Shown: positions 1 to 28,424, numbered from the stretch's first letter. The stretch: 64,000 nucleotides of DNA from Psammoneis japonica (GCA_008632985.1 QPGO01000028.1:305598-369597); one strand, 5' to 3'. Numbers and translations are program-made. The notes: generated by a model from the sequence alone, not told the origin.

Positions 1-2218
1 GCAGTGTGACAAAGCTCATGGATGATCTGAATTGTGCACCCGCTGTGCCAAATTGCAAAGGTGCAGCAGTGGCTGTCTGTTGAAGCAGCACCTCAATGTG
101 TTGAAGGCAGAGCATTGTTGACATCTTGGCTGAAGGCAATGGCAAAGCATGGGGTGGGTCCATGCTTGTTTGGGAGTTGCCAGATCTGCCACCACCAAAC
201 TGCAAAGGTGTGGCAGTGGATGGCTGTCTGGGCAGTGTCTCAACATGTCAGAGGTGGTGTTGGCACCATGGCTGAAGGCCAGGTCCTGGCATGGGGTGGG
301 TCCCTGTGCCTTTGCCAGGTGGGCTTGTTGGAGAGCAAATGGTGCAACCAGCCTTCCTGAGTGCTGGGTCTGTTCACACCCACCTGCCCCTCTCCCACAT
401 GTGCTCCATCCCTCTGCATCTCAACACATTGGGGGCACTCTTGATTGGTTTTTCCAACAAACTTTGATGCCAATGAGCATCTCATGGTTGCATGCAAGCC
501 ACACCACTGCCATCCAAAATGATGCTGATTTTGCACAAATCTGGTTCGCGCAGCTGGCAGAAGCCAACATTCACACACCTTTCATTCATCTTGCTGCCAT
601 GAGAATGTGCCTTGAAATCATTGGCACAACAGACAACTGTGTTCTTGAACAGTGCAGGTTGTGACATGTCTCAGTTTTGCTTCCTGGGAGTTTTTCACAG
701 CAGTGCCTCACCTCCTGGGTGTGCAGGAAAGGTGCTCCTCCTCATCTGTCATCTTAGAGAGCTGTTTCCGATCCTTGCACCCAATCTCCTGTGCATGACA
801 AGAGTGTCATTCACTGAGCAATGCTTTTGTCCTTTCTTTGAATGGTGGCAAAAAAGAACAATGCTCTTCGGGGCAAGTGTTTGTGCAAAATGCATGAGTC
901 CACACCTTGCACTGCCAACATGCACTGTTGAACATGCACATTTCCAAGTTGCGTGCAACAAGCTGCAGTGCAGCACAATGGTGCATGATGATGCATGCTG
1001 CCGGTGTCTCACTTTGCAGCATGACCTCTCAACAATGCTTTCACCTGTTGCCCTGTTTCTTGTTTCCTTCTCAATGACAACATTGCGGTGCATCCCACAA
1101 GCTTGGTCCCATTGTGCATCAATGAGCTTTGTCCAAAAAATCTTGTCACTGGCAAGTTGGACAGTCAGCACATTGACAACAGAATGGAAGACAAAAACAT
1201 TTTTGACAACACCAAACACTTTTTAACTGACTGAGCCAGTCTGTGCTGCTCATCACATGATGGAGTGGCAAGTCCAATTTCACCATCAATCACCTCACCA
1301 TCACCGTTGTCTTCACCACCATCAACTGCACCTGTGTCAGAGTGCACTGCTTGCAACACCTCCTCTTGGACCACTTCTTTGGGTGCAGTGCCACCTGATT
1401 CTGAAGACTGAATCTTGGCTTTGAGCTTTGAAACTGAGTCATCATGCTTTTTGCTTTTGTCAGGATTGATCTCCACAATCACAAAATGATGTGGCACACA
1501 AGTCCTTTTTGCACAGTTTCCTGATGTCACCATTCTTCTCCTGCAATTTTGCCTTTGCAGCTGGAAGCAGCTCTTGCAGCTTGGCTCTCATTTCTTCTTT
1601 CTTGTTTGCATCTTCCAATCATTCCAGCCATTTGAATCATTCATCATGAGAAGCAAAAAACTTCAACCAGTTTGGCCTGTGTTCATGAGGCACACTCACA
1701 ATTCCACATTGACCCCCCATCATTCCAATCATGTTGAGACATTTTGCTGTCATTTTGACACTTTGTCCCATTGCTCCAGCATCTTTTTTACCTCTCTCAA
1801 TGTCACATCATTGGCAGCAAGGGCTGCAATCTTCTTTTGAGCATCACCCAAGTCTGCACCAAGATGTGCAGAAGGTTCACAAGATGCATTGCATCCATGC
1901 TTGGGATCTCAATGATGAAACTCAACATGCACAAAGAGATCTTTGCCTTTGACTCTTAATTTGTCTGGAACAAGCTGGAAATGTAAGAGGCCATGGTTTG
2001 CATCCTTTGCTGCCTTGTGTGCTGCTGCAACTTCTGGGTTGGTCATGGCACATTGCATCTGATTCTCAGACAGAGCTGTCATGTCTCAAGATGCTCCAGA
2101 TTCTCTTTTGCTGCTTTGTGGCAAACTCTCAATTGCTGGTGGTCCTTCAAGAGAATCTTGAATGTCCTCAGCAGGCTCTAGATGATGCACTCAAGAGTGA
2201 ATCCTCCATGCAAGTCAA

Positions 2219-3955
2219 TCAAGGGCACAACTCCTTTCTTGTTTTGAGGAGTTGTGCCATGCCACCATGATGGCAGGAGCAGGCACTTGTCAATGTGTGT
2301 GATTCTTCTGCCGTGAAGCTTTCTCCAGCTTGAAGAAATGGTTCAATCCTCTTGCAGTGCTCAGGAAATGAGACATGAGTCCTTGGATCCAAACCAACTT
2401 GTGAGAAGGATTTGGCCCATGTTTCTTCAGTGGCACCATGCAGAATGTGTGAACCAATGTTGATGGTGAGATCCCACTGATCCACTGCCACTCCCTTGCT
2501 GATTTGTGCACTTCTGTGTGACCCAAGCCCATCATGCTTTCGATCTTTGTTGCTGGCTGCTGCCAATTGATCATGTGATTGACTGGCATGTGATGTGCCA
2601 CCTTCTTGTTTCAATGGTGCAACCTTGTTTTACCAATGGCATTCCATGGCTTCCAATGAAGAGAAGTGTGGGCCAAACCCATCAAGAATCTTCAGCATCT
2701 GCCACCACAGGTTGGCTGCCACTGTCAGATGCACACTTGTTCTGTGACCTGACACAACAGCAGGAGTCATTTTTGCCTGCACTTCTTCTGTCATGAAAGC
2801 AGTCAAGGTCATGATGATTGTGGAGCCTTTTGCAGCATCCCACTTTCTAAGATGCACATCTGGCACACCCGGCATGCCTCCTCTCTCTGGCAAGAACAAA
2901 AACAGCAGGGCCCTGGCCTCCAGCAGCAGTTCCCACATGACAAACCAATGTTGACACACTGGAGTCATGCAAAATTTTCTCATGTTTCTTTTTGCTGGCA
3001 GAACCAACAATGCAGATGTTTCCATTCAACACAGTGAAGCAAGACTTGTCCCCTGTCTGAACAAAATGCTGAGAGCGACCTCTCCAAAAAGCTTGCCCAT
3101 CATCCCACAGTGACCAACATTCCTGCTCTTGAGAAAGTTCAAAGAATTCTCATCCTTTGTAAACCAGCAATGCTGACCAGCTGTTGCAGCTGCAGTTGGT
3201 TTGGTTGTTGTTGCTTGAGCCTTTTGTTCTTTCTTTTTGACAGTTTCTGAATGATTTGGCTGCAGCAGTGTCCTTTGGAGGTGGTCTGTTGCACTCTTGC
3301 AGCTTTTTACATCAAGGCATGCTGCTGGCTCAACTGCCAGATCAACACATTTGGTTTTTGAAAGTCCATGGTTGGCTCTGCAGAGCTCAGCAATTGATTG
3401 CTCAATCACCTCTGGGGATGTTGCGTCGACAATCAGCTTTCTTCTCTGGTGCTTTTGCCAGTCTGATGTCATTTTGCAGGTCATTGTTGACACACTTTCT
3501 GAAGGCATTGATTGGCACTCCAACAACATTGGCAAATGCACTTCCATTGAATGAGCTTCTCCATTGCCATCTCAATGCTGGTCCTTCTTGCCAAGCCACT
3601 CATTCACTGCATCCATCATGATTGACAGATGAGGCTTCTTGTGCCAATTCGTCCTTGGTTTCTTTGCTGCAATGGACTCATCACTCTTGCCACCATCCAC
3701 CAATGCACTTCTTGTCTTGATCATTCTTGGCTGCAGCAGTCTTCTTGCCAGACCCTTTCTTTGTTGTCTTGAGCACAGCAGAAAGTTTCTCGTCAACTCT
3801 GGGGCAGCGCTGCTGGCAGCACCCTGCACAAGCATTGCTTTCTTCTTCTTTGGATGACCACAACACTTGTTTTTTAAGAAAAAGTCAGTTGCAAAAGAAA
3901 GCTTTGCCTTTTTTGCATTTTTCTGTGTTTTGAGAGGCTTTGAAGGTGGTGCCAT
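2219..3955 (-). mobile_element. Degenerate pogo/Tc1-mariner-type (DDE_1-like) transposase, frameshifted
   Basis: Minus-strand fragments from MAPPSKPLK (ATG 3955) through ILDGFGPH (~2664-2690) and GTSHASQSHDQ resemble the DDE_1 LDG.xSH ... TSHxxQxxD motifs. Multiple frameshifts; 3' limit uncertain. Confidence 0.55.
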
Positions 3956-4589
3956 GGTTGATCTTTGAAAGAAAAATGAGGCACCAAATCTTGGTGGCAT
4001 CCCACACACCGGCAGAAATCAGTGTTGTTTCTGCTGCATGTGTGACACAAAATTGCCTTGGTGTGCAACATTGATCCCATCATCAGTCATGTGGAACATT
4101 TTTAGAGGGACAAAAAATGACAACAACATGCAGAAATTTGGAGTTGCACAATTTTTTTTTGTGGCCAGGAGCACAATGAGATCTTTCATTTGCGCACGTC
4201 AAAAGGGCAAGAAAATGGAAAATTGAAGTTTTTTCAGGTCTGCATTTCTTGGCTCAAATTGCATGACTCTTGCAGCAGCCAGCTTTTACAGCATCACAGA
4301 GCAGCAGGTGTGGCAGCAAGCAACTGTGGAAAACAGAACAGAAAATGGCAAGGTCAGCCTGGGTCAGCCCATTGCTTGTTCTGTCAAGTGCCTTTTCTTG
4401 CAACTCATTGTGAAATCACATCTCACCTTTGCCAAGGATCAACATCCTCCATTCAAGGTCTCTCTTAATTTTTTCACCATTGTGCACACTGTTCACAAGC
4501 ATGTGTTGTGTTGTGCAACAACAGAAGTGGCAGCCACTGCAAGGATTGTCCTCACTTCCAAAACAAGAGGCTTGCAATCAGACAAACAG

Positions 4590-4850
4590 CAAGAACAAGT
4601 CTTTCAACAAGCAAAGCAATCCCTGCCAGCATGGCTGTTCAAGATGGAATTCATGCACATGTTGTCCATGGAAGCAGCAAAGAAAATTCCTGACCAAAGC
4701 TTGGATTTTGCACACATTGATGCTCACCATGATTGTTGCGGTGTGTCAAGGAAGATGTTGAAGCTTTCCACCCACCAAAGCTTTGACTGGGTGGCATGTT
4801 GGCAGGCCACAATTTCTTGAATGCAGATGAAGTTTCAGCAGACCAACTGC
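4590..4850 (+). pseudogene. Class I SAM-dependent methyltransferase (Methyltransf_24-like) fragment
   Basis: DQSLDFAHIDAHHDCCGV followed, after a frameshift, by GMLAGHNF resembles the SLDFVYIDARHDY...GGILAGHDY motif with Y->H and Y->C changes. Confidence 0.6.
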
Positions 4851-5205
4851 TGTCTGCAGTCAGACTGTGTGAGGATGACAGAGAGACTCTTTGGACAGAC
4901 AAGCAGCTCTTTCTCTCTTGCCAGTGCTCGTGTCATCCACCATTGCCAGTTTGCAGGGAGCTCTTTGGCTCATTGCTCTTGCCATTGGTGCTCTGTCAGG
5001 TTGTGGCCTCATCATTTCATTGTTCCTCTGCTTTGAAACTCCCACTGTGGTTCATTTGGTTTGTGAGCTGAACAAGCATGCCACCATTTTTGATCCTGGA
5101 ACAGAGTTTTTCACGATGCCAAAGACAATTTTCTGGTTTCTGGGCTGCAGAATCACACTGAGCTCTGTGTGTTTTTTGGTCAAGAATCATTGCACCGATC
5201 TCACC

Positions 5206-8200
5206 ATGGCACACCTCACTCCCAAAAAGGGCACCATTGACACCCTTGCCAAGATCTCTGTGGCATTCAAACCACACCCTTGCCAACAAAACACAACTGA
5301 GCATCTGAATGGCTTGCACGGTGGCTCTGTCATCAATCTGGATCAGTTCTTTGACAACAACAAACATGATGCACAATCAAAAGATGGTGTTGTTGACCTC
5401 CTTGCTGACCATGTCATTCAAGCAACAATCCTTCAGGAGACTGCGCACCCCCCCACAGAGAAGCTTCCGGTTGCACACTTGATTGACAAGTCCCCCATGT
5501 GCATCACCACTGGGACTGCAGATGACTCGCTGTCTTGTCTTTCATGTCAGATGTCAGATCACAAGACCAGGACTGCTCTCAAGATCAAGCATGCAAAAGC
5601 AATCATTGCAGTCAACCCCAGGAACATTCATTTCAATCCCAACATGAAACATTCTCACCAGGATTGGAGTGAGTTCTCTGACACACCCCACATCTGCAAA
5701 TGCATGCACCAAAAACCCCACCGCCATTGTTCACAAGTTCAAGTGGAGTCAAAACTCTCCCTGATGATGATCCTGTGAAATCATGTTGAGATCAGGGGAG
5801 AGAAGAGGAACCCGTTGAGCCATTTGAACAGGAACATTCCAATTGTCCCAAGGAATCAGGATTTGCTGCCCTCAACTCCATCCATGTGTCTCTGTCCATC
5901 CCTTCATGGACATCTCCCAATGTCACTTTTGACACCAAATGCAAGATTTTTGACGTCAATGCCATCAAATTTTTGTCCAATGAACACTGTGCACAGTTTG
6001 ACACTGGTGCCTGTGTCTCCTGTGCAGGTGACCAAAATCTCCCACACAACTGCCAGGCTTTTACACTCAATGACCCGTGTCCCCTCAAGATCAATCCGGC
6101 ACTTGGTGGTGCTGCTGTTCCCATGGCTTTGGTCACTTGTGTGTCCCAGCTGCAACCAAGGAAAGCAACATTGCTGTCCATGCATGCTGTCATCCCAAGC
6201 CCCAATCAACTTTGGTGGTCAAGCAGGCTTTCCACACAGCCAATGGTGGATGCAAACAAGATTTCATGGCAGATTGTGTTTGCTGAAATTTCACAATCAA
6301 GGAACCTGTGAGTGTGTTGCAAAACATTGCCTTTGCAAGGCTCAAGACATCATCACATCCATGGTCAACTTGTCAGTGGCAAGTGTTTGACCCATTCTTT
6401 GATCCTCCCAGAATTGGTGAGACATGCTTGACACAGCAACATTGGAGCTCAAGACTCTGCTGACCACAAGTTTGCTGAGGAATGTGATGCCATGGTGGCA
6501 TGTGTGATCAACACCTGCAAAGAGAACCAAGTGAATGCCATGAAAGAACAATGCAAGCTCATCCCCCAAGTCCACCAAGACATTCCCTTCAAGATGCCCC
6601 TTGAGAACAAAGTGCCCATCAGTCCAATCCCTCAAGGCTGATGTGGGGTGCATGCTCTGGCATCAATGCCTTGGCCTTCCCAGTGATCACCACTTGTGCA
6701 ATGCCTGCAAATGTGTCAAGGGTGTTCCCAAGCTTGCTCATAGAAAATCTTCTTTGGATGCTTGTCCTGCTTGCATTTGAGTGAAACAGACAAAGAGCCC
6801 TGCTGGTCCCAACTCCACCCGCACCACGACCCAGCCCCATCAAGGTCTGGCAGTGGATTTTGCATTTTCCAGCATCAAGTTTTGAAGAATGAAGAATGTG
6901 CTGTGGATTGTGTTGGCCTCAATGGGGAAACTCATTGGATTCTTGTCTGCTGTGATTGCTGCACCCATCATCTCCATGTCTCTGCTCATGTCTCCAAGGC
7001 TTCTCCAATCAAATGGATTTGCCATTTTTTGGAGGACCACTTGCCAAAATGTCAAGATGAATGTGTGTTTGTGGATCAAGATGGGAAGTTGTACAGAAAC
7101 CCAGCAGTGCAAAGACTTTTTGAACATGACTTTTGGTGTGACATGCACCCAACTGGCATTGGTGCCTCTCACCAAAATGGCCCCATTGAATGTGGCCACT
7201 TGACTGTGCAGAATGCTGTTTGAGCACTCCTCATTGGAGCAGGTTTGCCCATCAAGTTTTGGCCTTGTGCTTTCTGCCATTACACTGGCATCAAGAATGC
7301 AATCCCTTCAAAAGATCAGGATGTCTCCCCTGCTGCTCTTGCCACACAGGACAGGTTGAAGACTCCACTGGTTTTTGTGCCTTCAGATGCCATGTTTGGG
7401 CTTGCAAGAACACCAAGCACCCTGCAAAGATGCGGGACAACTCTGCCAAAGACATTTCCCTGGAGTGCATGCCGGATGCAACCAAGAACAATGTGTGGCA
7501 TAATCCCGCATCTGACCTTGTCAAGATGGAAATGCATTTTTGTTTTGACAAAGGTGTGAGTGATGTTCCCCATGACCAAATGCTGCCAAATGTCATTCTT
7601 CTTCAGCAGATGCAGAATGGTGAACCGTTTCCGGCCAAGGAAGAAGAAACTTCTGTCAAACAGCTCCACTTTGCTGGCAAACCTTTTGCTGAGATGCTTC
7701 AGTGCAACATGCAATGGTCTGCATTGGATCCAAAGCATGGTGTGACCTTCAAGACTGACAAGCTCTTCAACCATGCTTGCTTCTCCAATGTCAAGTGTGG
7801 CAGCTCTGTGGCTCATTTGTTCTCCTCTCTCTTCAAGGCTGCTTGGGACAAGATCTGAGGTGTGTGTGTTGCACCCATTGATGCCACGGATGTTTTCGCA
7901 CAACAGCAGGTCAAACAAGATGAACTCCAATGCCTGTGCAATGCTGACACTCCCTCCTTTGACATTGTTTTTGCACTGGAATGATGCCTTGACTCCCATC
8001 AGCTCCAACATGCCTTGATTGAACATGACACATTCTTGCCTCCTCCTCTGGAAGATGAAGAACATGTTGCTGAGCTGACAATGGCAGATGCACGCATTGT
8101 TGCAGCCTTGCACCATTTTCCTGATGTTGACTTCTCAGTCTTGGATGATGTGGAACCCAAATCTGCACCAACAACAGACCATGAACAGGGTGCTTTCAAC

Positions 8201-8785
8201 ATTTCTGTGATCTCATCTCATGCCATTGCACCAGAAGAGCACGCTCTGGACAGTTTTGCTTGCAACAGCTTAAGAAACTGCCTCTGCGGAACAAGTGGCA
8301 TGAGGGTGAATTCACCCAGCTTGATCATTTTCATGCTCTTGGAATGTTTGGTGCACCAATTGAACAACTGAAGGGTGCGATTGCACTCTGGCTGCATTGG
8401 CAATGCAATGTCAAGACAGATGGAACTTCATGCTCTCACCATTGCTGTGACAGTTCCTCATGTGCTGCTCCTGCTTCACATTGTCTCCAGTCTGTCCACT
8501 CCTCCTGCATGGAACAACTGACTCAGCATTTGTTTTTTGCACTCTTGGCATCACAATGGGATGTTGAGTGCATTCTGGTGATGCACAAGATGCACATGCA
8601 TGCTCACCCAGTCCTTCAACACTGGCACATGTTCAGATCAACAAGGCTCATGCCACTTGGAGCAAGGATTGTTTTGGCATTGATTCAGATGATTGGTCCA
8701 TGGTGCTGCCAATCCCACATGCCTTACAAGGACACCTTGAGCCAGGGGCACTCGGGGAGAACAATGTCAACAAGATCATCATGGA
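5206..8785 (+). mobile_element. Degenerate Ty1/Copia gag-pol (diatom CoDi-like), 3'-truncated
   Basis: Protease-like FDTGA (~5997). Integrase core VDQDGKLY...PTGIGASHQNGPIE..H (~7070-7200). RT N-terminal part GDAQDAH..SP and VLPIPHALQGH.E.G (~8570-8760). Order PR-IN-RT is Copia. Confidence 0.85.
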
Positions 8786-9525
8786 TGAGCCACAGCCTTC
8801 ATGACACTGGAGACCAGCCAGACAACACCACTTGAGACCAGCTGGACAATGCCACTTGAGACTAGCCAGGCAGTGCCATTCAAGTCCAGACATGTGCTGA
8901 TCAAGAGGACATGCCACTTGAGACTGGCCAGATGATGCCACTTGAGACCAGACATTTGCTGCTGCTTGAGACAATGCGCCACTCAAGACTGGCCAGATGA
9001 CACCAGTGGCCAGACGATGCCACTTGATGCTGGCTAGATGACACCATTGGAGACTGGAAATTTGCTGCTGGAGACAACACCATCAATGTTCGTTGCAACA
9101 ATGAATTCCAGCCTGCATTGGGCCTGAGCTCAAAGACAAGTTTGATCTCACAACAGATGTCAGGAGAAGCAGCTGATCCTTCTGAGCCACAGCCTTCATG
9201 CCGCTGGAGACCAGCTGGACAATGCCACTTGAGACCAGCCAGGCAATGCCATTCAAGACCAGACATGTGCTGATCAAGAGGACATGCCACTTGAGACTGG
9301 CCAGATGATGCCACTTGAGACCAGACATTTGCTGCTGCTTGAGACAACACGCCACTCAAGACTGGCCAGATGACACCAGTGGCCAGACGATGCCACTCGA
9401 TGCTGGCTGTAGATGACACCATTCAAGACTGGAAATTTGCTGCTGGAGACAACACCATCAACGTTCATTGCAACAATGAATTCCAGCCTGCATTGGGCCT
9501 GAGCTCAAAGACAAGTTTGATCTTA
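8786..9525. repeat. Two-copy ~370-400 bp duplication built from a 24-bp minisatellite (unit ~CCACTTGAGACCAGCTGGACAATG)
   Basis: 8786-9150 is repeated at 9184-9525. Each copy holds several 24-bp units and ends in a ~60-bp piece of the family-A integrase (matches 29790-29848). Confidence 0.9.
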
Positions 9526-10731
9526 TGACAAACTGCACAAGTGCTCAGGAACATGCCCCAGAAGCCAAAAGGAACAACCGTGTCATTTGGGAACACACCA
9601 GGGCAGTCCATCATCAACTGCCATTCAAGCATCTTCCAAAACTCATGGTCAAAGTCATCATCACTGAAGCTGCCAGAAAGCTCAATCAATTTCCAGCCAA
9701 GCATGGCATTTCAAAATGCTGCAGTCCAAGAATGATTCTCCATCAAAAGAATCTTGACTGTGACAAGAGCTGCAAGGTTGCATTTCACACTTGCATGCAG
9801 GCTTGCAATGACCCGGACATGGAACACCCAAGAGTTGAGGACCCTGGATTGCATTCATTTGCACCCCACCAACAGCAACCAGGTCTCAGACACAAGGTGC
9901 TGCACTTGCACACAGGCAAGAAGAGATCACCCATTGCAAGGTCACCCCTGTGCCCATCACTCCCTCCATCATCAAACGAGTTCATCAATTGGCTGAACTG
10001 AACCAGATGCCCCATGGTCTCAAGATTGAGAACCACACTGGAATCATTTTGTACGACACTGCTTGGCTTGCAGGAGTGGATTGTGATGAAGAAGACATTG
10101 AAACAGAGGATGACAAGGACAAAGAACTGGACTGGGGAGAGTGTGACAAAGTCAGCCAAGAAGAGCAACAAGAAATCATTCAAGATCAAGAATTGGATGA
10201 AGAAGCCAGCTTCATTGACATGAAACCAGGAGAAATGCCCCAAGATGTGCATCTGGAAGAAAATGATGAAGTTGCTTCTCAACTGTCTGATGGGGGTGGA
10301 ATCTCCAAAGAAATCAATGAAATGATTGAGCTCTTTGATCAGAATCAAAACAAGGAAGTCTCTCTAGAAGTGCAAGAGCTCATTGACAAAATGCAAGAGC
10401 CGGAATCCAAAGAAGCGAACACAGCAAGGAGCAGAGTGAATCCAAAGAGAGTGATGAGGAAGAGCCTGCTGCCACATCAAGATCAAGAAGGACTCTGAAA
10501 CCTCCAATTGGATTTGGTGACTGCCTATGTCATCTGCAGACTCAAGCTCACACCAAAGTTGAAGAGTGCAGTCTGGAGACAGCCAGAATCATGACCACAA
10601 CAATGTGCCAATGGAACAAGAATTTCAGCATGATTTCCACTGTTGAGTGAAGCCAGCAATTTGCTCAGACTTGCAGCTTGGCACAAGGACTCCAGAAGTT
10701 TGGAGAATCAGGCTGCAAGTCAGCCGTGTCA
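9525..10731 (+). mobile_element. Copia family A fragment (integrase C-half to start of RT)
   Basis: Clear nucleotide homology to ~29850-31107 (AQEHAPEAKRNNRV, PITPSIIKRVHQLAE, QTCSLAQGLQKFG). Confidence 0.9.
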
Positions 10732-12318
10732 TGTGCATGCCAGCCCAGCCTGAAACAGTGGATTTCATTCCAGTGGATTCTCTTGCAGAGGAGTTGGCAA
10801 CACTGGCATCATCACTTGCTTGAGCATTGCTGGCTTCTTGCTTGGCCTTGGCCTTGTTGATGGCCTGCTCTGCTTGAGGTTTTCCATGCATCTCCCAGCA
10901 GTTGTTGGAATGATGCCCCCCTTTCTGCAGCAGTGACACTTGCCTTCTAACTGAGCAAAGGACAGGGTGAGTTCTTGGTTTTCCTCCTTTTCCATGGATT
11001 CAGAGCTGTTGCTCCAATTGTTCTTGTTTTGGTTGTTGTTGGTCTTGCCAACACAGTTGAGCTTGTGGTTGCTCAACACAGAGTTGGCTTCCACAATGGA
11101 CTTGGGACATTGGTCATTTCTGAGCAACTCTGCTGGGTGTTCAATCCTGTCAGAATGGAACCGCATTTACGTTGATCTGCACTCTCCAAGCAAATGCAGC
11201 CCATCAACTGGCTGAACACCTGTTCTTGACACGTCTTGACAGCATCTGCATCATTTTCATTGCAGTCAGACATTCCTTCTGCCACTTTAGTGAGGATGAT
11301 TGGTCCTCCAATGTGAGACTTCATGATGTCTCTTGTGACCCTGAATTGCTTGGTGTGGTCTTGGAGACTCTCTTTCTCCTTCTGTTTGGTTCTGATCATG
11401 GCTCTTGCAGAATCTAAAATGATTGCCATGTTGCATCTGTGCTCTTGACAATTCAATGCATGCTCCTGAATTGCCTTGAGCAGCTCAATGGGGTTGGGTT
11501 GTTCTCAATCTTGGTCTCAAAGTCAGATCTTGCCTGGATCTTGTTCTTCATTGCCTTGGAGCACCTCTCCCAGAGCAAAGGATGAGCCTTGATCAGGTTG
11601 TTCTCACAAGTCTAGGTTCTTTTGATGTGAGCATTGAATTGCATCTTGAACTCAATTTTGTGCTGCTTGTTCAATGATGGCACATCAATCTTCTTGTCTC
11701 CTGTTGAGCTGACCTCAAGAGTCAGCTTCTTGAATTTCATGTCGCATGGAGTGTAAGTCTTGAGTGCAGCTGCAATGTCACCTCCAAACTCACAAGTTTT
11801 CTTGATGTGTTTTAAGATGAATTCAATTGCAATCTAAAAATCGGGTGCTTGCTTGGCACTCCCAATGCAGTGAACGCAATCGTTGATGCTCTTTGTGGCC
11901 TTTCTTGCCACTCTTGTTTCCTCTTCCATGGGATCCTCTTCCCTGGCTTCTGTTGCCAACTCTGCCTCTGCCTCTTCCACTCATGATGAAATGGCAAAGC
12001 AGCAAAACATCTCACACACAGCAACAATGACTCTTTTCTTTTTTCTTTCTTTTCAGCTGGATTGCTCTCTTTTAACTGTTGATTTTCACCCTTCTGGTGA
12101 CTGTTTCAGAGCCACCTCAGTCCTCCATGGTCGTCTGATCCTGAGGGCAAAATGGACAAGCTTGTTGTCACAATGCTTTCTAAGAGTTAAAAGAGAACAC
12201 AATGACTGCTTCTGTGGCAGTCCACATGCTTCACGTGGAGCACATGAGTGCTGACGCGCACGTCTTCTTTGCACCATCTAATTTCAACACATGAGCCGTT
12301 AAATCTTGTTTTCCAACA
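10732..12318 (-). mobile_element. Copia family A 5' fragment (5' LTR 12077-12318, leader, gag), inverted
   Basis: Reverse complement of 12077-12318 is a TGTTGG...CAACA LTR homologous to 27466-27703. Gag MSGRGRGR..., RTKQKEKESLQDHTK..., SFAQLEGKCHCC is homologous to 27806-28930. Confidence 0.9.
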
Positions 12319-13739
12319 ACTTTCTTCCCTTTTCTCTAGAGCCAAGAGTGCCACAGAAATCGCAAGCAAGACAAACAGTTTCAAGGCTGGCGCATTCATA
12401 GAATGAAGAAAGAAAAGTTGGTGGGCACCAAATGGAGGTGAAGTTGCCTCTGAAGCAAGTGCCAGCAGTGCATGGGTTCTTGAAGAGTGTGGCAGCAGTG
12501 GCAAACATGACAGTGGCATTCATTGGGGTGCCTTTTCTTTTGCTCTGATGGAAGGAGTTGGAGCTGCCACTTTTCACCATAATCAGGGGGCTCTGTGATC
12601 TTCAATCTGTCAAGTGTGAGCCGAAATTGAAATGAGAAAGTTGTGAGAACTGAGTCTGAATCACAGCAAAATCACAGGAAGGAGCTTTCAGCTAATTTTG
12701 GATTTCTCTCACCTCTCTTTTCATGGGTGCACTTGTCAGAAAGAAGTGTGTCATGTCACACAATGGCACCTCTGGCAGGAAAAGTTTGGTGGCAAAACAG
12801 CTCATTGGTTGTTGCTGCGCAAGTTGTGAGAATCAGGTGAGAACAGCTGCAAAATCACAGGAAGGATTTTCCACCCATTTTGGGTTTTTTCTCACCTCTC
12901 TTTTCATGTGCTGAAAAAGTGTGTCAAATTTCTTGCAAACTGTCATCATGTGTCAGAATGCCAAATCTTGTCTCAAAAGTCCAAAGGGTGAGAAATCTTT
13001 TTCAGTGCCAGCAGAAATGTGTCACACAAGCACCAGAAAATTTAGAGGGACAAATCATTTTGGAAAAGTGTGCCAACCTTGCATCGGGTGTCGGCCCTGT
13101 GTCTTTTTCATTGAAACACAATGAAGCACAGAGATCTCAGGTGGTGTCTGTGTTTGGGTTTTGCCCCCACAAAAATTCTCTTTGGCCTTGTTGCAATGAT
13201 GGGGAAGAAACAGTGCCAGTTGATGAGGTTGTTTGTCATTAAAGGGGTTTTGCAAGAATTGAAATTGGTCTGCAACAGGTTGCTGTTGTGGTGGGATTCA
13301 TGCATGCCAGCAGCACAGGGCTGCACCAGGCACTTCCACCAAATGGTTTGAGAGGCTCCTTGGCCATCGGCACAAGCATTCAACAGCAGCTGCCACCTCT
13401 TGTCTGCTGGAATCTTTGTCAGAGTTGAGTTGTGGTGTTGCTCTGACAGAGAAGCACCTGGTCCTAAGTCTGTTCCAATGAAAGGACTGGATCTCAAAGC
13501 AGAAGCAAGGTGACTGCCAAATGGATGCTTGATGACACATGACACAATTCGATGGCATTGCAGCAAGCAAATGGACCAGCTGTTGAGTCCCATGGAGCCG
13601 TCCGAGATTGCCCTCAAGAGAAAATCTGGGCTCATTGAGTTTTGTGTCTCTCTAGAGCAGAGATTGTCTTGACATCTGGGCATTCAAGCACACAGCATTG
13701 TTAAAGATAAACTTAAAAATTGCTGTAGAACGACAGCTG

Positions 13740-14330
13740 TTAATTTGGCATTGGCTCCTTGGAACTGCCAAGACAAGCCAAATGCAGAAAAGCATCAGTT
13801 CCATGTCCCTCCATGCTCACAACATGCAAATCCCCTCCAAAGTGTTGACAATGCAACTGACTGATGGGCAATCCATGCCCCAAACCTGCCAATGGCAAGT
13901 CTGTGGCATGGTCTACATTCTCTCATTGAACACCACCAAGCCCTCTTGTGTGGTGGGATCGGCAGTCGTAAAGAGATGCGACCAAATCTTGTCAATGTTG
14001 CTGCACACAATTCCTCCACCCTTGTCACTCACCTTGATGACCACATCCTCCTTGTTGTCTGCACCATCTGCAATCACCACCTTGATGGGAGGACAGTTGG
14101 CAAAAATTCCGTGCCAATCTGCCATGGCTCTCATGCCATTTTTCAAAAGCTCCAACAAAATGCAATCTGGTGTGCAACATCAAAAGCCGAGTCAAGTCAG
14201 TCGGCTGCACACACCACAGCACACAATGCAACAACATTCTCAAACTCACGCAAATGGGCAAGCATGGGGAAAGGTCAAATCAAGTCATCCCATCATCATG
14301 ATGACTTCCAGAGCATTTGCATGTCTTGGT
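13740..14330 (-). pseudogene. PDK: Pyruvate dehydrogenase kinase (PDK/BCKDK family) C-terminal genomic fragment with an intron
   Basis: LLELLKNGMRA...PPIKVVIADG...EDVVIKVSDKGGGI...KIWSHLFTTA...PLAGLGHGLPIS...HFGGDL..SMEGHGTDAFLHL is the PDK HATPase domain. GTGAGT...CAG intron at 14249-14167; stop TAA at 13742-13740; frameshift near 13920. Confidence 0.85.
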
Positions 14331-14340
14331 GGACAATTGA

Positions 14341-14780
14341 CCCTTCAACCACCATGGAGCAAATCTCCATGGTGGAGATTTGCTCCACTTGACGAGTTGT
14401 GATGTGTCATGCATTTGCACAATGATGAAACAAACATGGTGTAAAAATGTCACATCATGTGCAATCTGCATGAAACACACCACATGCATTTGCTTGTTGC
14501 AAAACAGAGCAATTCATCATAAATTTCACAGTAAAAGGTTGAGATTTAGTTCTCTCTGTACATCAATGAAGTGTGCAACAAACCTGGTGTTAAAAGTTGA
14601 CATTGAACTTTCAAAATGGCAAGAATGGTCCCCCAGAGCTTTTGGCGAATGCGCGCTCCAGAACAAAATTGCGCAAATTTTTTGTCACGCACATCTGAGG
14701 AAATTTTGTTTGGCACATTTGTGATGCAAGCAAGCAAATCTCCACCCATGGAGATTTGCTCAGGTCCAGTGGTTGAAGGG
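14341..14780. mobile_element. piggyBac-type MITE
   Basis: Terminal inverted repeats CCCTTCAACCAC / GTGGTTGAAGGG with an internal GAGCAAATCTCCA..TGGAGATTTGCT hairpin at both ends. Flanked by TTGA (14337-14340) and TTAA (14781-14784). Confidence 0.8.
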
Positions 14781-17700
14781 TTAAAATTAGTTGGCAGTGC
14801 ATGACAATGCATGCATCGCACAACACATGCACGTGGTGTGCAATGTACAACTGGTTGCAGATTGTGGAACTCACCATTTCATTTGATCAGCCACCTGGGC
14901 ACACCGGTCTCCTTCACGCGCACTTTTAAAATTTTGAAATTTCTGTGAGGTTTCAAACAAAAGACAAATTTGTGAGCCTCGTTGACACACAATTGGAGCA
15001 GGCTGGAGGCATGCACTGCAAAATGTTCATTGCAGTGGTGCAGAGAACTGAGAAAATTGGTGAAAGCACCACTGAGAATCAAAGTGACATTGACCTGCAC
15101 TCCAGAATTGCACCACTTGTTCTTTGGCAAACTTTTGGCAAACACTTCTGTGCTTGAAGCTTGATGCTGTGCAAGGATCCCAAGCTCTTGGCATCAATTA
15201 GAAAATCCTCGTTAAGAGTGAAACAAGAAATGGGGAAATCGGTGAAAGTGTCATTGAGATGTCACCAATTTCCCACAAAGTGTGACACTGATGGCACACA
15301 TCATTGTGTGCTGCTGCAGATTTGAGTTGTGTCAGAGAGAGGTGTTTTTGTTTGCTTTTGTGTTGGCCTGGATGTGCTCGCAGTGCCCCGCTGATTGTGA
15401 ATGCCTGTCATCCCCCTGATGACAAAGATCTCTCTGAGGAGTGCGCGCTGCTCTCCACTGTCTCTGCTCTCTGCTCTAGCCAGCCAGTGGCTGCTGAGGC
15501 CCTCCACCAGCCAGCAGCTGGAGCAGCACTGGCAGGTGGTCTCTGCAAGCACTGGCCACCAGTTGGTCATCTGCACAGATGCCATGATGTTTCTGGCTGC
15601 GGCAATCCTGGTGCTGATTCTACAAGACAGCATGTAAAACAGCACATTTCGTGCAAAAAAAAGCATGCCGGCAGTTGATTTGTGGTCCTTGACTGCAATG
15701 AACTCATTTCTTGTGCATTCAGAAGCCTTCAAATGCCACTGTAAATCAATTTTTCCTTGTGTCATCCATGTGCCCCTGTGCCCTGGGGTGTTTGACGCTT
15801 TGCTGTCAACGGCAAACCAACCAGGGAGCATTGGAAAAATTGTAGTGGCATTTTGGACCAAGATGTCACATTGATGGCATGTTTTGTCCAAATGTGCCAT
15901 TTGTGCAGATGACCATCTAGCAGAGAGCAGAGCACACATGTTGTCCACTGTCGCCAGTTTGCAGGGAGCTCTTTAGCTTGTTGCTCTTGCCATCAGCATT
16001 CTGTCATGAAGTCAAGAAGATGACCTGTAGAAGCATCTTGCTGCACTGACCTTTTTTTTTTTGTTTTGCTCTGATGCCTTGGCAAGTGCTGACATTCTTC
16101 CATGCGGTGCTGGCAGGACAAAGCCTCCTCCTTTTCTGTGCATGGTGCAAACCTCCCATGTTGTGCCTGTGGTGAGCACTTGCAAGGCATTGAGATCTCT
16201 TTGTTCACCCATTGTTGGTGTCAGAATTGAGGTGCACCAGCTGCACAACTGCAAAGCACACCCACTTGTGAGTCATTGCTTGGACATGTTTGTGGACCCA
16301 GGGTGCAGATTTGGAACTCATTTGGTCAGCTTTCAGTCCTCCAAGGAGTGCAAGCTGGCTTGATCAGACTTTTTAGAGACTGGCTGAAACAAACGATCAG
16401 CCATTTGGGAACACCATTGCCATGAAACCCGCCCTGCATTCTGTCACAAATTGAACATGTTTCTTGGTCTTAGCAACAGGACCACCATTGGATTTGGACT
16501 CAGTTTGAGCATCACGGAAGTGCTGTCAAGAATCATGACATCCACTCATCTTGTGGCCTCTCCAAAAAAGTTGAATGTGATGCTCACGGACAACGAATTT
16601 GCAACAATGGAACGAGCTGCATCCATTCTTGTGTTGGAAGGAGCCTCCATGTCTCACGCACCCGCGGATGAATTGGTGTGCAGCATTGTCAATTTGCACG
16701 GGCAAGAAGAAAAGAAGGAGCACAAGTGCATTCAACAGCTTGTTCTGGTCTCTCTCATCAACTGTTGCACTCAAAACATCATGCCAGTGAAATGGATGCC
16801 AAGCATTCCCACAAGCGTCATTGTCCCAGTCGACGCAGCCCAAGGCGTTGCCAACATTCTGCTTCGCCCAAATTCCTTGGCAACTTGTCCAAACATTTTC
16901 TTTGTTGGATTGCTCATCAAGCATGCTTGACATGAAGAAGGTCTTGGTTTCATGACATGTTCTTGCACAAGTGATCAATTGATTTGAGAACTGTGTCTGG
17001 CAGTGGGGGTGGACAGCATGCCTCAGTGGACCAGAAGAAAACAAGACAGTGGACACCAAGACAAACCATCTGCTGTGCAACGATGGTCTCAAGTGGGATG
17101 GTGGCACACCATCATGGGTTGAAGCCACCCACTTTGCATCACATGTTCTCAAGTCACTTCCATCTGTTGCAGCTCAGCATGAATGCCTCCAAACAATCAA
17201 GGCTGAATTTTTTCTAAAATGGGCAAACTGTCCAAGTTTTTCCAAGTCCAACACCTGGCAATCCCGGCATCAAAAGACATGTCGTCTCTCCCACATGGAC
17301 TGGACCACACAATTGTGAATGGCGTTAGATGCTTGCACATTGGATTTGAGGTTCAGAACTTGCTGTGTCATTTGAGTCCTCTGTTGGAATTCTTTGAGAC
17401 AACAGGTGCTCTTGAGCAGATTGCTGTCTTTGTGCATGCCATGTCAAAAAGTTCAGAGCCCTGCATGTGTCCACAATCACAGTGTCACCAAAAAGCTTTC
17501 ATCATCCTGCCAACTGTGAACAAACTAGAGATGCTTGTTACTCAACCTGAAAAATGTCACAGCAAAAGTGCAACTAGAGTGGGAATCATCTCTTGCCAGC
17601 ATGAGAGTGGAGTTGGCCTGGCACAGAGATGAGACATGTCATTGCCACAACACTTTGAGAATGCAGCAGTGTGATCTCTAGAGCTGCTCTGCTCTCTCTC

Positions 17701-19399
17701 TCTAGAAAGAGTTGGTTGTCATCACAGCACCTCCACTTGGCAGCTCTGGCTTTGTTGGCTTGCTGTGAATGAGAGATGGGTGTCGGTTCTGTCAACATGG
17801 CAGAATGACTGCACTCTAATGTAAATCCACATGGCTGGGAGTGGGGCAGCATGGCTGGGCAGGAGCAGCTTTTATTTCCCCGCGTGACTGACTGCAACAT
17901 GCCAGCACACGCAACACTGAACCACTGCAGCACACAGACGAGCACTGAGAAAAGCAACCACACAAAGACAGGGGAGTCATGGCAATCACGGTGCAGAGGC
18001 AGATCAATCCAGCACAACAGATGGACAAAACAAAGAGAAGGTGGGCAGAGACATGGTCAAGGTGAGAGACCATGTCAAAGAAAAGGTCTTTCTCAGCATC
18101 ACATTTGTGTTTGATGCAAGGCAGTCAGAGGAAACCAGAATGCTGTGCAGAGACTGTGCCCAGAATTGTGGACCAACATCAATGGACAGAACACTTTTGG
18201 AGCTGCCAGAGGCAGAGCAGAAGACACACCTGCATTTCCTGTGGACAAAAATAAAACAAAGGAGGTTGCACCAGGGTTGGCTGATGATGATAAAGCAATC
18301 CAATGCACATCAGGCCCAGCAAGACAAGTTTCACGGCAAGTGTTGTCATGGAGGATTGTCATGGATGAGGAAACAAAATGCCGGCATTGGCATGGTTTTG
18401 TTGTTGCGTGTTGTGCAGAGTGCAAGAGCAACAACAAGGACAACCGTTTGATGTCAGACTGCTGTGATGCAGAGATCAACAACCAAGGAAGCCCCACTGG
18501 AAGGGAAGATTTGTGTGAAATCATGATGCCAGACATCGCCATTGCCAAGCTGGAGGACAAAAACAGATCAAGCGCATTCGCCATTTTGGAAAAAGACCCT
18601 GAAGAGCCCATGGAGCAAGGAACGGGTCAGTTGAGGAGTTGGTGAACTGGTTCAAGGAGGTGCAGAAAAAGTCCATCAAGAGCCACAATGCATGCACGCG
18701 GAAGGTCAGAGCGGAGCAAACAACACAGGATCAATTGTCCATTTTGATGGAGGTCACGACCAAGCCAGAGAGAAACCAGAGCCTGCCAGACTGGGAGTGC
18801 AGTGCTGAGAAGAGACAATGCATGAGATGCCTGGGGCACTTCATGGCAGGAAACTCCAAGAGCGGAGTGGAAGAAGGTGCTTCAAGGAGATGATGCAAGA
18901 TGCCCAGGAAGTGCAAAGGATGGTCAATCAGGGCAAACAAGTTCTTCAAGAAAGTGGCAAGGGAAATCAAACAAGACATTGAGGACTGATGACTGGGCAA
19001 ATGGGAAGATTTGCACAGGACAATTGTGGCCAAGTGCAAAAAGAAGGGGGGCAGGACAATGGCAAGTTTTGTGACAAAGGCGACCACATGGTGAGCTGTG
19101 CCAAGAAATGAAAACTGGAGTTGATGCCTGTTTGGCAGATGGCATGTTAAAAGAATCAATCACATCATTGCAAATGACATCACAGAGCTGATCTGTGAGT
19201 GGTTCAACCACTTCATTCATTGATGGCAGAGCCACAGTCACAAGTCATTGTCTCGAAGCTCGAGGCATGCTGACACATGAACATGTGTGCAATGTCACAG
19301 CATGACATGTGAGCTTGTGTGTTGCAGTCAACAAATTCCAGTGGAAGAGATTTTCCATGTCGGGTGCTTGGCAAAGAAGTGTGCGGGACTGAACACACT

Positions 19400-19655
19400 C
19401 ATCGTGGGGCCCCACAAACACGGAGGGACCCTCCTGTGCAGAGCTCTGCGCGCGAATTTTTGCATGTGGCACCAAAACATGCAGCCTGCAGCATGCACAA
19501 AACTGGCACAGTTTCTATGACAAAAACAAAAAAAAATGCCCAGTTCACGAGATGGCTCTGGTGCGAAACCTGCATGAACAGCCCCCATGCACTCGCGCAG
19601 AACTCTGCACATTTCCGGGTTGCGGGTCCCTCTGCATTTGTGGGGTCCCACGATG
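19400..19655. mobile_element. hAT-type MITE
   Basis: Imperfect long TIRs CATCGTGGGGCCCCACAAA... / ...TTTGTGGGGTCCCACGATG. 8-bp flanking direct repeat AACACACT / AACACACC. Confidence 0.7.
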
Positions 19656-20358
19656 AACACACCCGCCTCTGGAGAAAAATTGGCGCACATTGTCGCAATC
19701 TTCTCAATTTTTGTTCCCCTCCCTGCCTGAGCCCTTTCAGGCTTTCCTTCCTGCAAAATTGCCCTCATCTCCCGGGTGTCAACCAAAAGGGCCAGGCAAC
19801 TCCCCCCCTCGACCTGGCCATTTTTTGGGATTCCTTGAACGGGCAAAAAAGCAAACCAAGCCAAACTGCCAGCTTCAACCTCCCACCACAAAGACTGCTG
19901 CACCTGCTGCAGTGCAATGGTCACAGCGGACTGGTTTCGAATTGATCTTCGCTTGCATGTCCCGACAACCAACTGGGAGCACTTGTGCACCATTAGCCAA
20001 TTTTCCAAAAGCCTGAAGCTATCCGCCCTCGATGCGGGGGCGCCCCCGTCATTGTTTTGACCGTTAAACGGTCATCAATTCATTCTTTTCATGTGCAGTT
20101 ATATTTACAACAAGAAAAGATCCATCCGGCCGCAATAAATACAACCGACCGCAACCGCCACATACATACCGCCCGGTACACACTGGCACAATACTGTACA
20201 CGCACATCATGCAGCACGGTGTTTACAGTTTCGTGTTTCTATCTCACCCCACTTTCAGCAGCAGAAACTGTACCGGTAAGCAACCAACCAACCACTGCTC
20301 CCCCTCGAACACTCACAGCCAATCATCCCTTCTAAACCCCCCCCTCAAGAGCATCAAA

Positions 20359-26080: not shown

Positions 26081-27465
26081 GCATGTCTTTAAACTCGCAA
26101 ATGTAGGCAAGAAGAAGAACGGATCTGAGAGAAGACAACATATCTCAAAATCTAAGTATTTATGGACCCCTAATTTGAAAAAAAGGGATTCATCGCACTA
26201 AATGCACGCGCGTTCGCCAAAATGAAATTGCAGTGATAGGTCGAGCTTTATGAGTTCTCAAGACATCATAGTATGCAAAGGCGATGGTTATGAGCATGCG
26301 CGACGTTTGGCTTATAGACTGTAGATATGTCTATAGCAAATCAAACGCCAATTATCGGCATTTCCTGGAAAAGTATGGCTTATCTACCATAAGTAGCATA
26401 ATTTTGGCGAAAATTAGCGGTAATTTCAACCTAGCATCAGGGCAAAAGTTAAAGAATTTTCATGCTTCATGCAACATTTCTTGCTTCAAAAGACCTAAGA
26501 TGAGCCTATATTTAAAGTCAGTTTTGTCAGAATGCACAAGCCATAAAAAGTTAAGCAACTCACCAAACATTGTGGAGAGGGCATCTCTTGCGTTGACATC
26601 CTTGATGCTTTTATTGATGCAATTTCAAAAGCTGAGATCGAGGCGCAATCTGGTTTTCAGCATCAACTCAAAATTATCGGGATCACGCTCGAACAACGCC
26701 TTCCGAAAAAAAAGCTATTTCGAGTAGCACTAGCTCCAACTTACTTTTTTTGCCTCGTTAGTAGCTCTCTACAGTACCATGGATACATTACCTGTAACCT
26801 ACCTGTGGCTACTTTTCTTTGGTTTCTTTTGCCTATTGAAGCTCTGCATTGCTTTCTAGAGCGTATGTCTTTTCAACTCGCAAATGTAGGCAAGAAAAAG
26901 AATTGAGCTGCGAGAAGAGAACAAGTCTCAAAAGCTAAGCAAAAAATCTCCATCGCAATGGGTTTTCTGAGGTGAAACGAAGTTAAGATTGGCTCAGCTC
27001 CGTTGCTTGTTTCAAAAAGTCCAAAGATGAGTGATTGAGTTTTCTGAGGTTTAATGAAGTTTACATGGCTCGTCAACAGCTCCATTGCCCGTTTCAAAAA
27101 GTCCTAAGATGAGCGATTGATGCTATTTCTTAAAGAAAAAACTAACCACCTTGTCACTGAATGATTCACAGAAATTCGACTAAAATTAATTAAAAAGGCA
27201 AATCATCGCCTTTTTCTTTTCGACTAAAATTAATAAAAAAAGATCATCGCCTTTTTTCTTTTAAATCCGACAGTCCATGGAACCTGTGTACCTCGTTCAA
27301 TCGGAAGATTCTTCCTTGAAGCCATTGCTTGTTTCAAAAAGTCCTAACCAGATTTTTATGTATCCACCATGTAATTGTCTGCTAAAGCTTTAAGTCTTGT
27401 TTGTGCTACAGGTGTGTTGTACATTTGAAAACCCTTTAGCAATGTCATGGCACATGGCCAGTGTG

Positions 27466-27703
27466 TGTTGGAAATGGTGAATTAAAAGTTCAAACACCGA
27501 AATTAGATAGCGTGAAGAAGACGTACGCGTCAGCGCTTATGTGCTCCACGTGAAGCAACGAAACAGCCGATGGAAGCAGTCATTATTCTCTTTTAACTCT
27601 TAGAAAGTATTGTGATAACAAGCTTGTCTATTTTAGCCTCAGGATCAGACCTTAGAGGACTGAGGTGGCTCTGGAACAATCACCAGAAGGACAAATTACA
27701 ACA
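27466..27703 (+). repeat. 5' LTR of Copia family A
   Basis: TGTTGG...TACAACA; aligns end to end with 32730-32967. Confidence 0.95.
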
Positions 27704-28424
27704 GCTGAAAGAGAACAATCCAGCTGAGAGCTGTGAAAAGAAAGCAAGAAAGAAAAGAGTCATTCTCACGGTGTGTGAGACATTTTACTGCTTTGCCTTT
27801 TTATCATGAGTGGAAGAGGCAGAGGTGGAACTGGCAACAGAAGCCAAGGAAGAGCATGCATTGAACTGCCAAGAGCACAGGTGTGACATGTGGCTGTCAT
27901 CTCAGATTCAATGAGAGCGGTGCTGGAAACCAAGCAGAAGGAGAAGGAGAGTCTCCAAGATCACACCAAGAGATTCAGGGTTGCAAGGGACATCATGAAG
28001 TCTCACATTGGAGGACCAATTGTCCTCACCAAGGCAGTGCAAGGCATGTCAGAATGCGACGAGCACAATGCGGATTCTATCAAGAAGTGTCAAGAAAAGG
28101 CATTCAGCCAATTGATGGGTTACGTGCACTTGGAGAACGCAGACCAGTGCAAGTGCGGATCAATTCTAACAGGATTGAACACTCAGCAGTCCCTCAAGAA
28201 CGACCAACATCCCAAGTCTGTTGCGGAAGCCAACACGGTGTTGAGCAACCACACTTTTGACTGCGTTGGTCAGCCTGACAACTGCTGTAACAGGAACAAT
28301 CGAAACAACAACTCTGACTCCAAGAAACAAGAAGAAAACCAAGAAATCACGCTGTCCTTTGCTCAGTTAGAAGGCAAGTGTTGCTGCTGTGGCAAGGCCG
28401 GACACAATTCCAACAAGTGCTGGG

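Follow-up and report, generated by a model that had tools for sequence, protein, structure and literature searches.

A 64,000-nucleotide stretch of the Psammoneis japonica assembly (GCA_008632985.1, QPGO01000028.1:305598-369597), referred to here in its entirety as the window, carries on its minus strand, at 14336..13740, a fragment of a gene for a PDK/BCKDK-family kinase (PDK, pyruvate dehydrogenase kinase) from which nearly all TpA dinucleotides have been lost. Comparison with a parental copy recovered from sequencing data, together with the transposons and repeats that surround the fragment, makes it probable that a DNA-level duplicate of a PDK gene was later struck on chromosomal DNA by a regional process that changes TpA to TpG or CpA, and also underwent CpG decay.

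The fragment comprises the last ~170 codons, or C-terminal third, of the kinase gene. From its 5' to its 3' end the parts are:

14250..14336, minus strand: upstream-exon remnant (CPPRHANALEV...LDLTFPH), aligned by tblastn to residues 335-360 of the closest homologue, with a TGA and a 2-nt deletion
14167..14249, minus strand: retained phase-1 intron of 83 nt, GTGAGT...CAG, with 0 TpA
13916..14166, minus strand: proximal part of exon 2 with the N-box LLELLKN, IKVSDKGGG and WSHLFTTA, matched by PDB PDK2 and by the profile
13743..13922, minus strand: distal part of exon 2 (G2-box region with GLGHG...MEGHG), frame-shifted relative to the proximal part
13740..13742, minus strand: TAA stop in a TTAA context, one of two TpA left in the fragment

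Several searches agree on the identity of the fragment, which the sequence-only reading had also recognized as PDK. The frames at 13916-14179 and 13743-13922 (minus strand) matched PDK/BCKDK chains exclusively in the PDB, 20 of 20 sequences each, with best E values of 1.4e-11 (to PDK2) and 2e-12 (to PDK1/4). Against a diatom PDK profile of 440 positions, drawn from 59 full-length protein matches, the first frame scored E 2.8e-40 (positions 303-382) and the second E 1.5e-25 (381-439); the whole fragment, which covers positions 270-439, scored 4e-45, and its C-terminal GHKL ATPase domain was recognized with N-box and G-boxes. Pfam HATPase_c gave 25.9 and 17.4 bits for the two frames against a cut-off of 26.4, falling below it because the domain is split between them. 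A large protein collection yielded 89 proteins at E <=0.001 (129 candidates), all with PDK domains and the best 76% identical; the relatives named in full are all diatoms (Attheya, Ditylum brightwellii, Fragilaria crotonensis, Bacillariaceae sp., Epithemia clementina, Seminavis robusta and Mayamaea pseudoterrestris). By tblastn, residues 335-501 of the closest homologue, P0001 (a diatom PDK of 502 residues), align to 14335..13746.

Profile positions 1-269, which hold the N-terminal four-helix-bundle domain (PF10436), were found in none of the six frames of the window. A 2-nt deletion at ~14262 in the upstream-exon remnant, a frameshift at 13922 and an in-frame TGA that replaces an Arg of the relatives interrupt what is left. 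With its frame broken and its N-terminal domain missing, the fragment is, judging from its sequence, a dead, non-functional partial PDK copy, that is, a pseudogene. At 13499-13652, ~90 nt downstream of the PDK stop, is a short repeat whose bin depth in run X1 reaches 329; the duplicated segment may have its 3' limit there.

Contigs from three runs of one sample were aligned to the window at 80% likeness. In run X1 the fragment's own contig spans 13300-14365 with 1 difference and 1 gap at a word depth of ~60, and contig 3 (2596 nt) aligns over 13741-14256, intron included, and differs by 73 letters and 14 gaps. These two contigs (61.4 and 56.4) account for the bin depth of 117.7 across the PDK part, leaving no third copy at >=80% likeness. 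Contig 3 is evidently the functional parent of the fragment, untouched by hypermutation, because it is stop-free, closer to P0001 and normal in TA and CG: the rebuilt parental stretch of 65 residues has no stops and is identical to P0001 at 60 of 65 positions (92%), as against 50 of 65 for the window copy, and over 13844-14121 its observed/expected ratios (o/e) for TA and CG are 0.77 and 1.09, as against 0.12 and 0.24 in the copy. The question raised by the sequence-only reading, whether the parental copy had been spared, thus finds a positive answer.

The intron splits a His codon, and its boundaries, read as 14249-14167 from the letters alone, are matched by the read-through of X1 contig 3 and by the end of contig 10 of run X2. 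The latter (1263 nt) aligns over 13806-14166, halts at the 3' edge of the intron and then runs into exon-1 sequence (FPYVPTHL); it has 50 differences in total, and the 10 that fall outside the stretch 13844-14121 lie no more than ~40 nt from the contig's ends. A form without exactly these 83 nt exists, therefore, and the window copy has retained them. Run X2 is probably a transcriptome and contig 10 the spliced parental transcript, because the contig ends at the intron edge and continues as exon 1, and because 0.24 of the words of a 9-kb query are present in the run, roughly the share of the query's one intact gene. The run is labelled 'DNA?', and if it were DNA contig 10 would represent a DNA copy without the intron; in both cases the boundary stands confirmed. 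No X2 contig lies on the fragment itself at >=90% likeness, a result from which no inference is drawn.

The 40 differences listed over 278 nt (13844-14121), polarised from parent to copy, comprise 9 TpA>TpG, 1 TpA>CpA, 9 CpG>CpA and 5 CpG>TpG changes, 5 other A:T>G:C transitions, 2 other G:C>A:T transitions and 9 transversions. TpA was the site of 10 of the 15 A:T>G:C transitions. The fate of the 13 parental TpA was TG in 8 cases, CA in 1 and TC in 2, with 2 still reading TA; 14 of 19 parental CpG underwent transitions and 3 were kept; and none of the 42 parental TG or CA dinucleotides reads TA in the copy. TA was lost rather than gained, and the change followed context: 12 of 27 TpA bases (Fisher p 4e-7) and 16 of 38 CpG bases (Fisher p 3e-8) changed, compared with 12 of 213 other bases, the reference class. 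Within the fragment the rate of change at TpA bases was ~8 times that at other bases. The TpA bias that had been anticipated is therefore present, accompanied by an equal CpG bias that had not been stressed, and a TpA mutator acting as sole agent does not stand, CpG decay having added as many changes. The 34 changed codons include 13 synonymous and 21 non-synonymous cases, as expected of an unselected pseudogene.

Loss of TpA has erased tyrosine from the fragment. Its translation contains zero Tyr codons, and all 10 Tyr positions of the diatom profile consensus are occupied by His (8) or Cys (2). The conversion of conserved tyrosines, described earlier from the window's letters, is borne out by the parental DNA contig, against which five Tyr codons are seen to change from TAY to CAY or TGY: TAT or TAC became CAT or CAC at 13978 (WSY>WSH, TAT>CAT), 13877 (GLGY>GLGH), 13853 (SY>LH) and 13844 (TAC>CAC), and TAT became TGT at 14095 (DADY>NC). 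Among the five examples given in that description, WSYLF>WSHLF, GLGYG>GLGHG and RYFGG>QHFGG recur in the parental comparison; MEGYG>MEGHG is ambiguous, with its codon outside the listed rows, since P0001 already reads MEGHG and the His is possibly ancestral; and HYIL>HCIL is seen through homologues only (HY in P0001 and in the profile). CGN codons became CAN or TGN at 13859, 13847 (CGA>CAA, in RY>QH) and 14005 (R>C), and GTA codons became ACA twice. The two TpA that remain in the fragment stand in CTAC and TTAA contexts.

Such a pattern could also be obtained if modified bases in heterochromatin caused systematic errors of base calling or assembly, and both dinucleotides could indeed bear base modifications. 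Against this, the near-exact X1 contig reproduces the fragment and its flanks at a depth of ~60, the copy also has frameshifts, 9 transversions and a transposon insertion, and parent and copy coexist in run X1. Even allowing that X1 is possibly the same data as the assembly, we assign an artefact a negligible probability.

The transposon in question adjoins the fragment:

14337..14784, unstranded: piggyBac-like miniature inverted-repeat transposable element (MITE), the element proper at 14341-14780 (440 nt), with inverted ends and target-site duplicates

Its insertion point is 1 nt away from where recognisable PDK coding sequence starts. Local alignment, and the profile applied with the MITE excised, add 2-3 codons at most beyond it, so that the 5' breakpoint of the duplicate or an upstream intron would be located there. 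The element reads TTGA (14337-14340) followed by CCCTTCAACCAC... at one end and ...GTGGTTGAAGGG followed by TTAA (14781-14784) at the other; its inverted ends are at least 16 nt long, and three overlapping arm pairs of 14-16 nt were found. Elements of the piggyBac type are marked by a TTAA target-site duplication and by inverted ends that start CCC...GGG. The duplication and inverted ends seen here point to a piggyBac-like, cut-and-paste DNA transposon, and its summed word depth in X1, where many contigs align and which far exceeds that of the flanks, indicates a repeat family. The MITE has a TA o/e of 0.16, and one of its two target-site duplicates is now TTGA, the other being TTAA. For a cut-and-paste element, mutation of a duplicate that its own insertion made is only possible at the level of DNA.

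The signature extends far beyond the fragment and the MITE. For the window as a whole the o/e values are 0.23 for TA, 0.52 for CG, 1.60 for TG and 1.56 for CA. Calculated in 500-nt windows, TA o/e is 0.0-0.26 in 1-20000, 0.0-0.24 in 28000-35000 and mostly 0.0-0.25 in 38500-64000, and 0.4-1.4 in 20000-27500 and 35000-38500. Depleted blocks thus occupy 1-19994, ~27786-34952 and 38501-64000 (~52 kb affected), normal DNA occupies 20020-27697 and 35011-38363, and the edges between them (19994/20020, 27697/27786, 34952/35011 and 38363/38501) are tens of bases wide. GC content is 0.39-0.41 in unmutated DNA and 0.46-0.56 in the blocks. The block that holds the fragment is:

1..19994, unstranded: TpA- and CpG-depleted block with the PDK fragment and degraded copia pieces (TA 0.0-0.26, CG 0.0-0.5)

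Copia homology within this block spans 9464-12285. At 40-53 kb and 58-64 kb the blocks have lost almost all TpA but still have a CG o/e of 0.6-0.9, which makes the loss of CpG and the loss of TpA separable. Deamination of 5-methylcytosine at CpG accounts for 14 of the 40 differences between parent and copy and for the CG o/e of 0.1-0.3 in old blocks; it cannot explain TpA loss, which is seen also where CG is so well kept.

A genome-wide neutral bias against TpA and CpG, with TpA retained in genes by selection, would also leave old blocks depleted of both dinucleotides, and the fragment, clearly unselected by its substitutions, is where such a bias would be expected to act. However, the stretch 22500-27500, with no Pfam match and 3 scanned open reading frames (ORFs) of >=110 aa, and the spacer at 35000-35500, outside every scanned ORF, keep a TA o/e of 0.6-1.4, although they adjoin blocks at 0.0-0.1 across edges only tens of bases wide. 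The ~8-fold excess at TpA within a single fragment, and young-looking transposable elements (TEs) that are already TpA-free at near-normal CpG, are equally hard to reconcile with a uniform bias, and we regard this explanation as very improbable.

Repeats and paired long terminal repeats (LTRs) bear on when the changes were made and on what determines their location. The features concerned are:

15584..15874, unstranded: mutated copy of a short repeat whose unmutated inverted copy is at 35121-35402
27463..32969, plus strand: copia-type element, LTR pair 91% identical, weak RVT_2 match
38834..53554, plus strand: large copia-containing element with 245-nt direct repeats at 38834-39078 and 53310-53554, TpA depleted and CpG largely kept

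The 21 TpA of the unmutated short repeat read TG (10), CA (8), TA (2) or TC (1) in the mutated copy, which kept TG at 21 of 23 sites and CA at 10 of 11. In the copia-type element TpA is kept in the 5' LTR (27463-27705) and depleted in the internal part and in the 3' LTR (32727-32969); the 14 TpA of the 5' LTR appear in the 3' LTR as 5 TG, 4 CA, 4 TA and 1 TT, 9 of 14 having been lost to TG or CA. Five dinucleotides are TG in one of the direct repeats 38834/53310 and CA in the other, and the tandem copies 33413/33592 likewise have 5 split TG/CA sites. Such split outcomes imply independent hits after the copies existed, and together the LTR pairs and the target-site duplicates of the MITE lead us to infer that the process acts after insertion. 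Outside the blocks, the near-identical tandem repeats 22344/22655 and 25713/25895 are unmutated; with the spared PDK parent, they indicate targeting by place and not by homology.

Relatives of the large copia-containing element keep what it has lost. Two metagenome contigs, L001 and L002, with protein identities of 62% and 57%, have a TA o/e of 0.55-0.88 and read YEYIAVYVDD at the reverse transcriptase (RT) motif, which in the window is CEHVAVHVDD (motif HVDD). His or Cys in the window faces 12 of 18 tyrosines of L001. The relatives having kept both Tyr and TpA, depletion is not native to the element lineage. In L002:1-2300, CG o/e is 0.0-0.1 and TpA is normal (0.65-0.72), the reverse of the pattern at 40-53 kb of the window.

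An RNA route would place the changes before insertion: a PDK transcript left unspliced, or TE read-through RNA that contained it, would have formed double-stranded RNA, been edited from A to I at UA by an ADAR- or ADAT-like enzyme, and been reverse-transcribed and inserted. In favour of this route, the copy is 5'-truncated and ends, on its 3' side, with the stop codon; the window does contain reverse transcriptases; and a 9:1 bias between strands (see below) would fit one edited RNA strand. ADAR enzymes are, to our knowledge, known from animals only, which counts against this route, as do the retained intron and the lack of any poly(A) tract after the PDK stop; a processed retrocopy, with introns removed and a poly(A) tail added, is not what is found. 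The non-PDK DNA alongside, the MITE that was inserted later and one target-site duplicate of that MITE all bear the same signature, and LTR pairs that differ with split TG/CA sites could not arise from one edited RNA template. A domain scan (E 0.01) of 64 ORFs (55-109 aa) within 11.5-20.1 kb found no RT or other TE domain, giving two weak chance-level matches only (zf-LITAF and DUF6698), and none was found among the scanned ORFs of >=110 aa in 1-20000; tblastn with 16 TE ORFs of the window detected, near the fragment, copia pieces at 9492-10731 only. There is thus no sign, from domain scans, poly(A) or the two X1 contigs, of a retroelement that carried the fragment. UA is a favoured context of ADAR, according to a preprint (10.64898/2026.01.13.699255), but overall we give the RNA route very little credence. 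The retained intron, on which the sequence-only reading had relied for a mutator of DNA, is by itself a weak argument because an unspliced transcript could be copied too; the DNA-level conclusion is supported nonetheless, because of the MITE, the LTR pairs and the sharp regional edges in the same window.

Some observations weigh against a DNA-level duplicate struck by a regional process on both strands. The fragment is truncated at its 5' end, and recognisable homology stops at the stop codon. TpA outcomes in the fragment favour one strand, with 9 TG and 1 CA on the plus strand (binomial p 0.02); a symmetric double-strand process does not predict this bias, which hints at single-strand or transcription-linked exposure. 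The edge at ~27705 (27697/27786) lies no more than ~80 nt from where the copia 5' LTR ends, as would also be expected of an RNA-guided or transcription-linked process; either the LTR might be a boundary or the process might keep to transcribed sequence. A search of the two LTR pairs for target-site duplications and TG..CA ends found none, so that each pair is likely, rather than confirmed, to belong to one element. The listed differences are 40 of the 73 of contig 3, with none from the intron, and if X1 is the assembly's own data it gives no independent confirmation of the letters. Finally, everything said of the process is deduced from fixed differences, no de novo event having been observed.

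The neighbours of TpA influence its survival. Relative survival was estimated from 325 surviving TpA in 52.5 kb of blocks and 538 in 8.5 kb of normal DNA: it is 0.04 for ATAT, 0.12 for ATAC, 0.41 for ATAG, 0.56 for ATAA, 0.80 for GTAC, 1.17 for CTAC, 1.41 for CTAG, 1.71 for CTAA, 1.86 for GTAA and 2.15 for TTAA, which survives best. The preferred target is TAT, equivalent to ATA on the other strand. Polarised pairs give a weaker 3'-neighbour preference (16/37 for TAT, 13/27 for TAC, 8/25 for TAG and 10/37 for TAA) because their sites are near saturation.

Two kinds of chemistry could yield these changes. If the T of TpA were oxidised to 5-hydroxymethyl- or 5-formyluracil by a TET/JBP-type dioxygenase, it could pair with G and be read as C, again at the DNA level and regionally. 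Formyluracil mispairs with G; TpA is self-complementary, so that T>C and A>G are indistinguishable from fixed differences; and the ATA/TAT preference is compatible with either. Nothing in this analysis points to modified thymine, however, and the one experimental precedent proposes an ADAT2-like adenine deaminase, itself unproven. We consider thymine oxidation unlikely, and enzymatic deamination of adenine in 5'-TA-3' (best in TAT), with the product read as G at replication, the likeliest chemistry, the enzyme being a deduction from the pattern of changes.

The DNA-level reading can be put as a sequence of events. The 3' third of a host PDK gene, with one intron and the stop, would have been duplicated as DNA into a 20-kb transposon graveyard, where two context-specific transition processes would then have acted on chromosomal DNA. 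TpA>TpG/CpA would erase every Tyr codon (TAY>CAY/TGY) and turn ATA Ile into ACA Thr; ordinary CpG>TpG/CpA decay would give R>Q, R>C and CGA>TGA. The TpA process is regional: >=90% of TpA is gone from transposon-rich blocks, in LTR elements, MITE, gene fragment, intron and spacers alike, and the loss halts within tens of bases at genes and some intergenic DNA; the homologous parent is spared. Its targeting would be by territory, presumably heterochromatin, and not by the pairing of repeats as in repeat-induced point mutation (RIP).

One published parallel, the only one that we found, is a preprint on the chlorarachniophyte Bigelowiella natans (Mettrop et al., 10.64898/2026.01.13.699255). In B. 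natans mutation-accumulation lines, 231 changes are reported in two integrated viral regions, 230 of them A>G/T>C, at TpA and at ~1000x the background rate; elsewhere in that genome, RT and DDE domains are over-represented in TpA-poor clusters enriched in CpA and TpG, and an ADAT2-like adenine deaminase acting on DNA is the enzyme proposed (10.64898/2026.01.13.699255). The preprint nowhere mentions diatoms. The Psammoneis case is of the same kind, in another supergroup and with a far deeper footprint. Both cases have A:T>G:C transitions concentrated at TpA, giving TpG or CpA according to strand, and confined to chromosomal regions, and a single-copy region can be a target in B. natans also. 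They differ in that the PDK relatives in the window are all diatoms; in that TA o/e is 0.0-0.1 over tens of kb here, compared with 0.45 in the nucleocytoplasmic large DNA virus (NCLDV) region there; in that transposon blocks and a host gene fragment are affected here and giant-virus inserts there; and in that we see fixed differences where new mutations were observed in B. natans. A full-text literature search, with most subscription journals outside its coverage, found no report of TpA hypermutation in diatoms.

Fungal RIP likewise kills transposons and duplicated gene pieces within the genome, by a hypermutation that consists of transitions in a specific context. According to published accounts, it changes CpA/TpG to TpA, lowers GC, needs duplicated sequence and mutates both copies. 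Here, TpA is destroyed rather than made, GC is raised, the parent is untouched and tandem repeats outside the blocks are unmutated; this is not RIP. Editing by ADAR or APOBEC with reverse transcription, in animals, also leaves clustered transitions in mobile elements, and ADAR has a 5'-U preference. Such editing acts on RNA or cDNA before integration, whereas in the window DNA transposons, target-site duplicates, an intron-bearing copy and paired LTRs appear to have been hit after insertion.

It is possible, and we suggest it tentatively, that diatoms have an active territory-targeted TpA>TpG/CpA DNA-editing defence, the same as Bigelowiella's, and that the two represent an ancient counterpart of RIP with opposite chemistry across the stramenopile-alveolate-rhizarian (SAR) lineage. 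If so, this would be a defence independent of cytosine methylation and of sequence homology, and anything in transposon-rich chromatin would be killed through loss of Tyr and Ile(ATA) codons, and of TAA and TAG stops as well. If the host is a diatom, as is most likely, a phenomenon reported once, in a 2026 preprint on a chlorarachniophyte, would be extended to a major lineage of phytoplankton, where its footprint is much stronger; the enzyme and the targeting signal would thereby become tractable to search for. A gene fragment with a surviving parent is a rare polarised read-out of a mutator otherwise seen as odd dinucleotide content: it fixes the direction (TA lost), the context and the strand outcomes, and it indicates that homology to the copy does not expose the parent.

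The rest of the window has been affected in ways that matter for annotation. Stretches of >=110 codons free of stops number 154 over all six frames, and many of them overlap (for example 47552-50023(+), 49792-52014(+) and 40222-42294(+)), an abundance that arises because TAA and TAG stops have been converted. The Pfam scan covered 150 of the 154, leaving out 19-420(-), 243-581(-), 1490-1837(+) and 4121-4465(+); most of the stretches have no family match and are probably not genes. TE ORFs contain 0-1.2% Tyr, compared with 2.8-4.8% in two host genes. Spurious long ORFs and Tyr-less TE proteins in TpA-free blocks will mislead gene callers and TE annotation.

Two long ORFs are intact in the two normal stretches, one for a GT34+IRX15/GXM protein and one for a GH125 mannosidase. 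The former, at 20068-22434 (+), is an intact ORF of 789 codons with GT34 glycosyltransferase and IRX15/GXM (DUF579-type) domains and a TA o/e of 0.4-0.5; it begins ~50-75 nt from the edge of a depleted block and is unaffected. At 40000-46000 the strands are asymmetric, with TG o/e of 1.8-2.0 against 1.2-1.5 for CA and a GC skew of ~-0.15 to -0.19, the other blocks being symmetric. Inside a depleted block lies one further feature:

56190..56590, unstranded: TpA- and CpG-rich island of ~400 nt with 26 TpA and inverted ends of ~29 nt

The island is probably a young MITE that has yet to be mutated, and, if recent, it would be a natural clock for the process.

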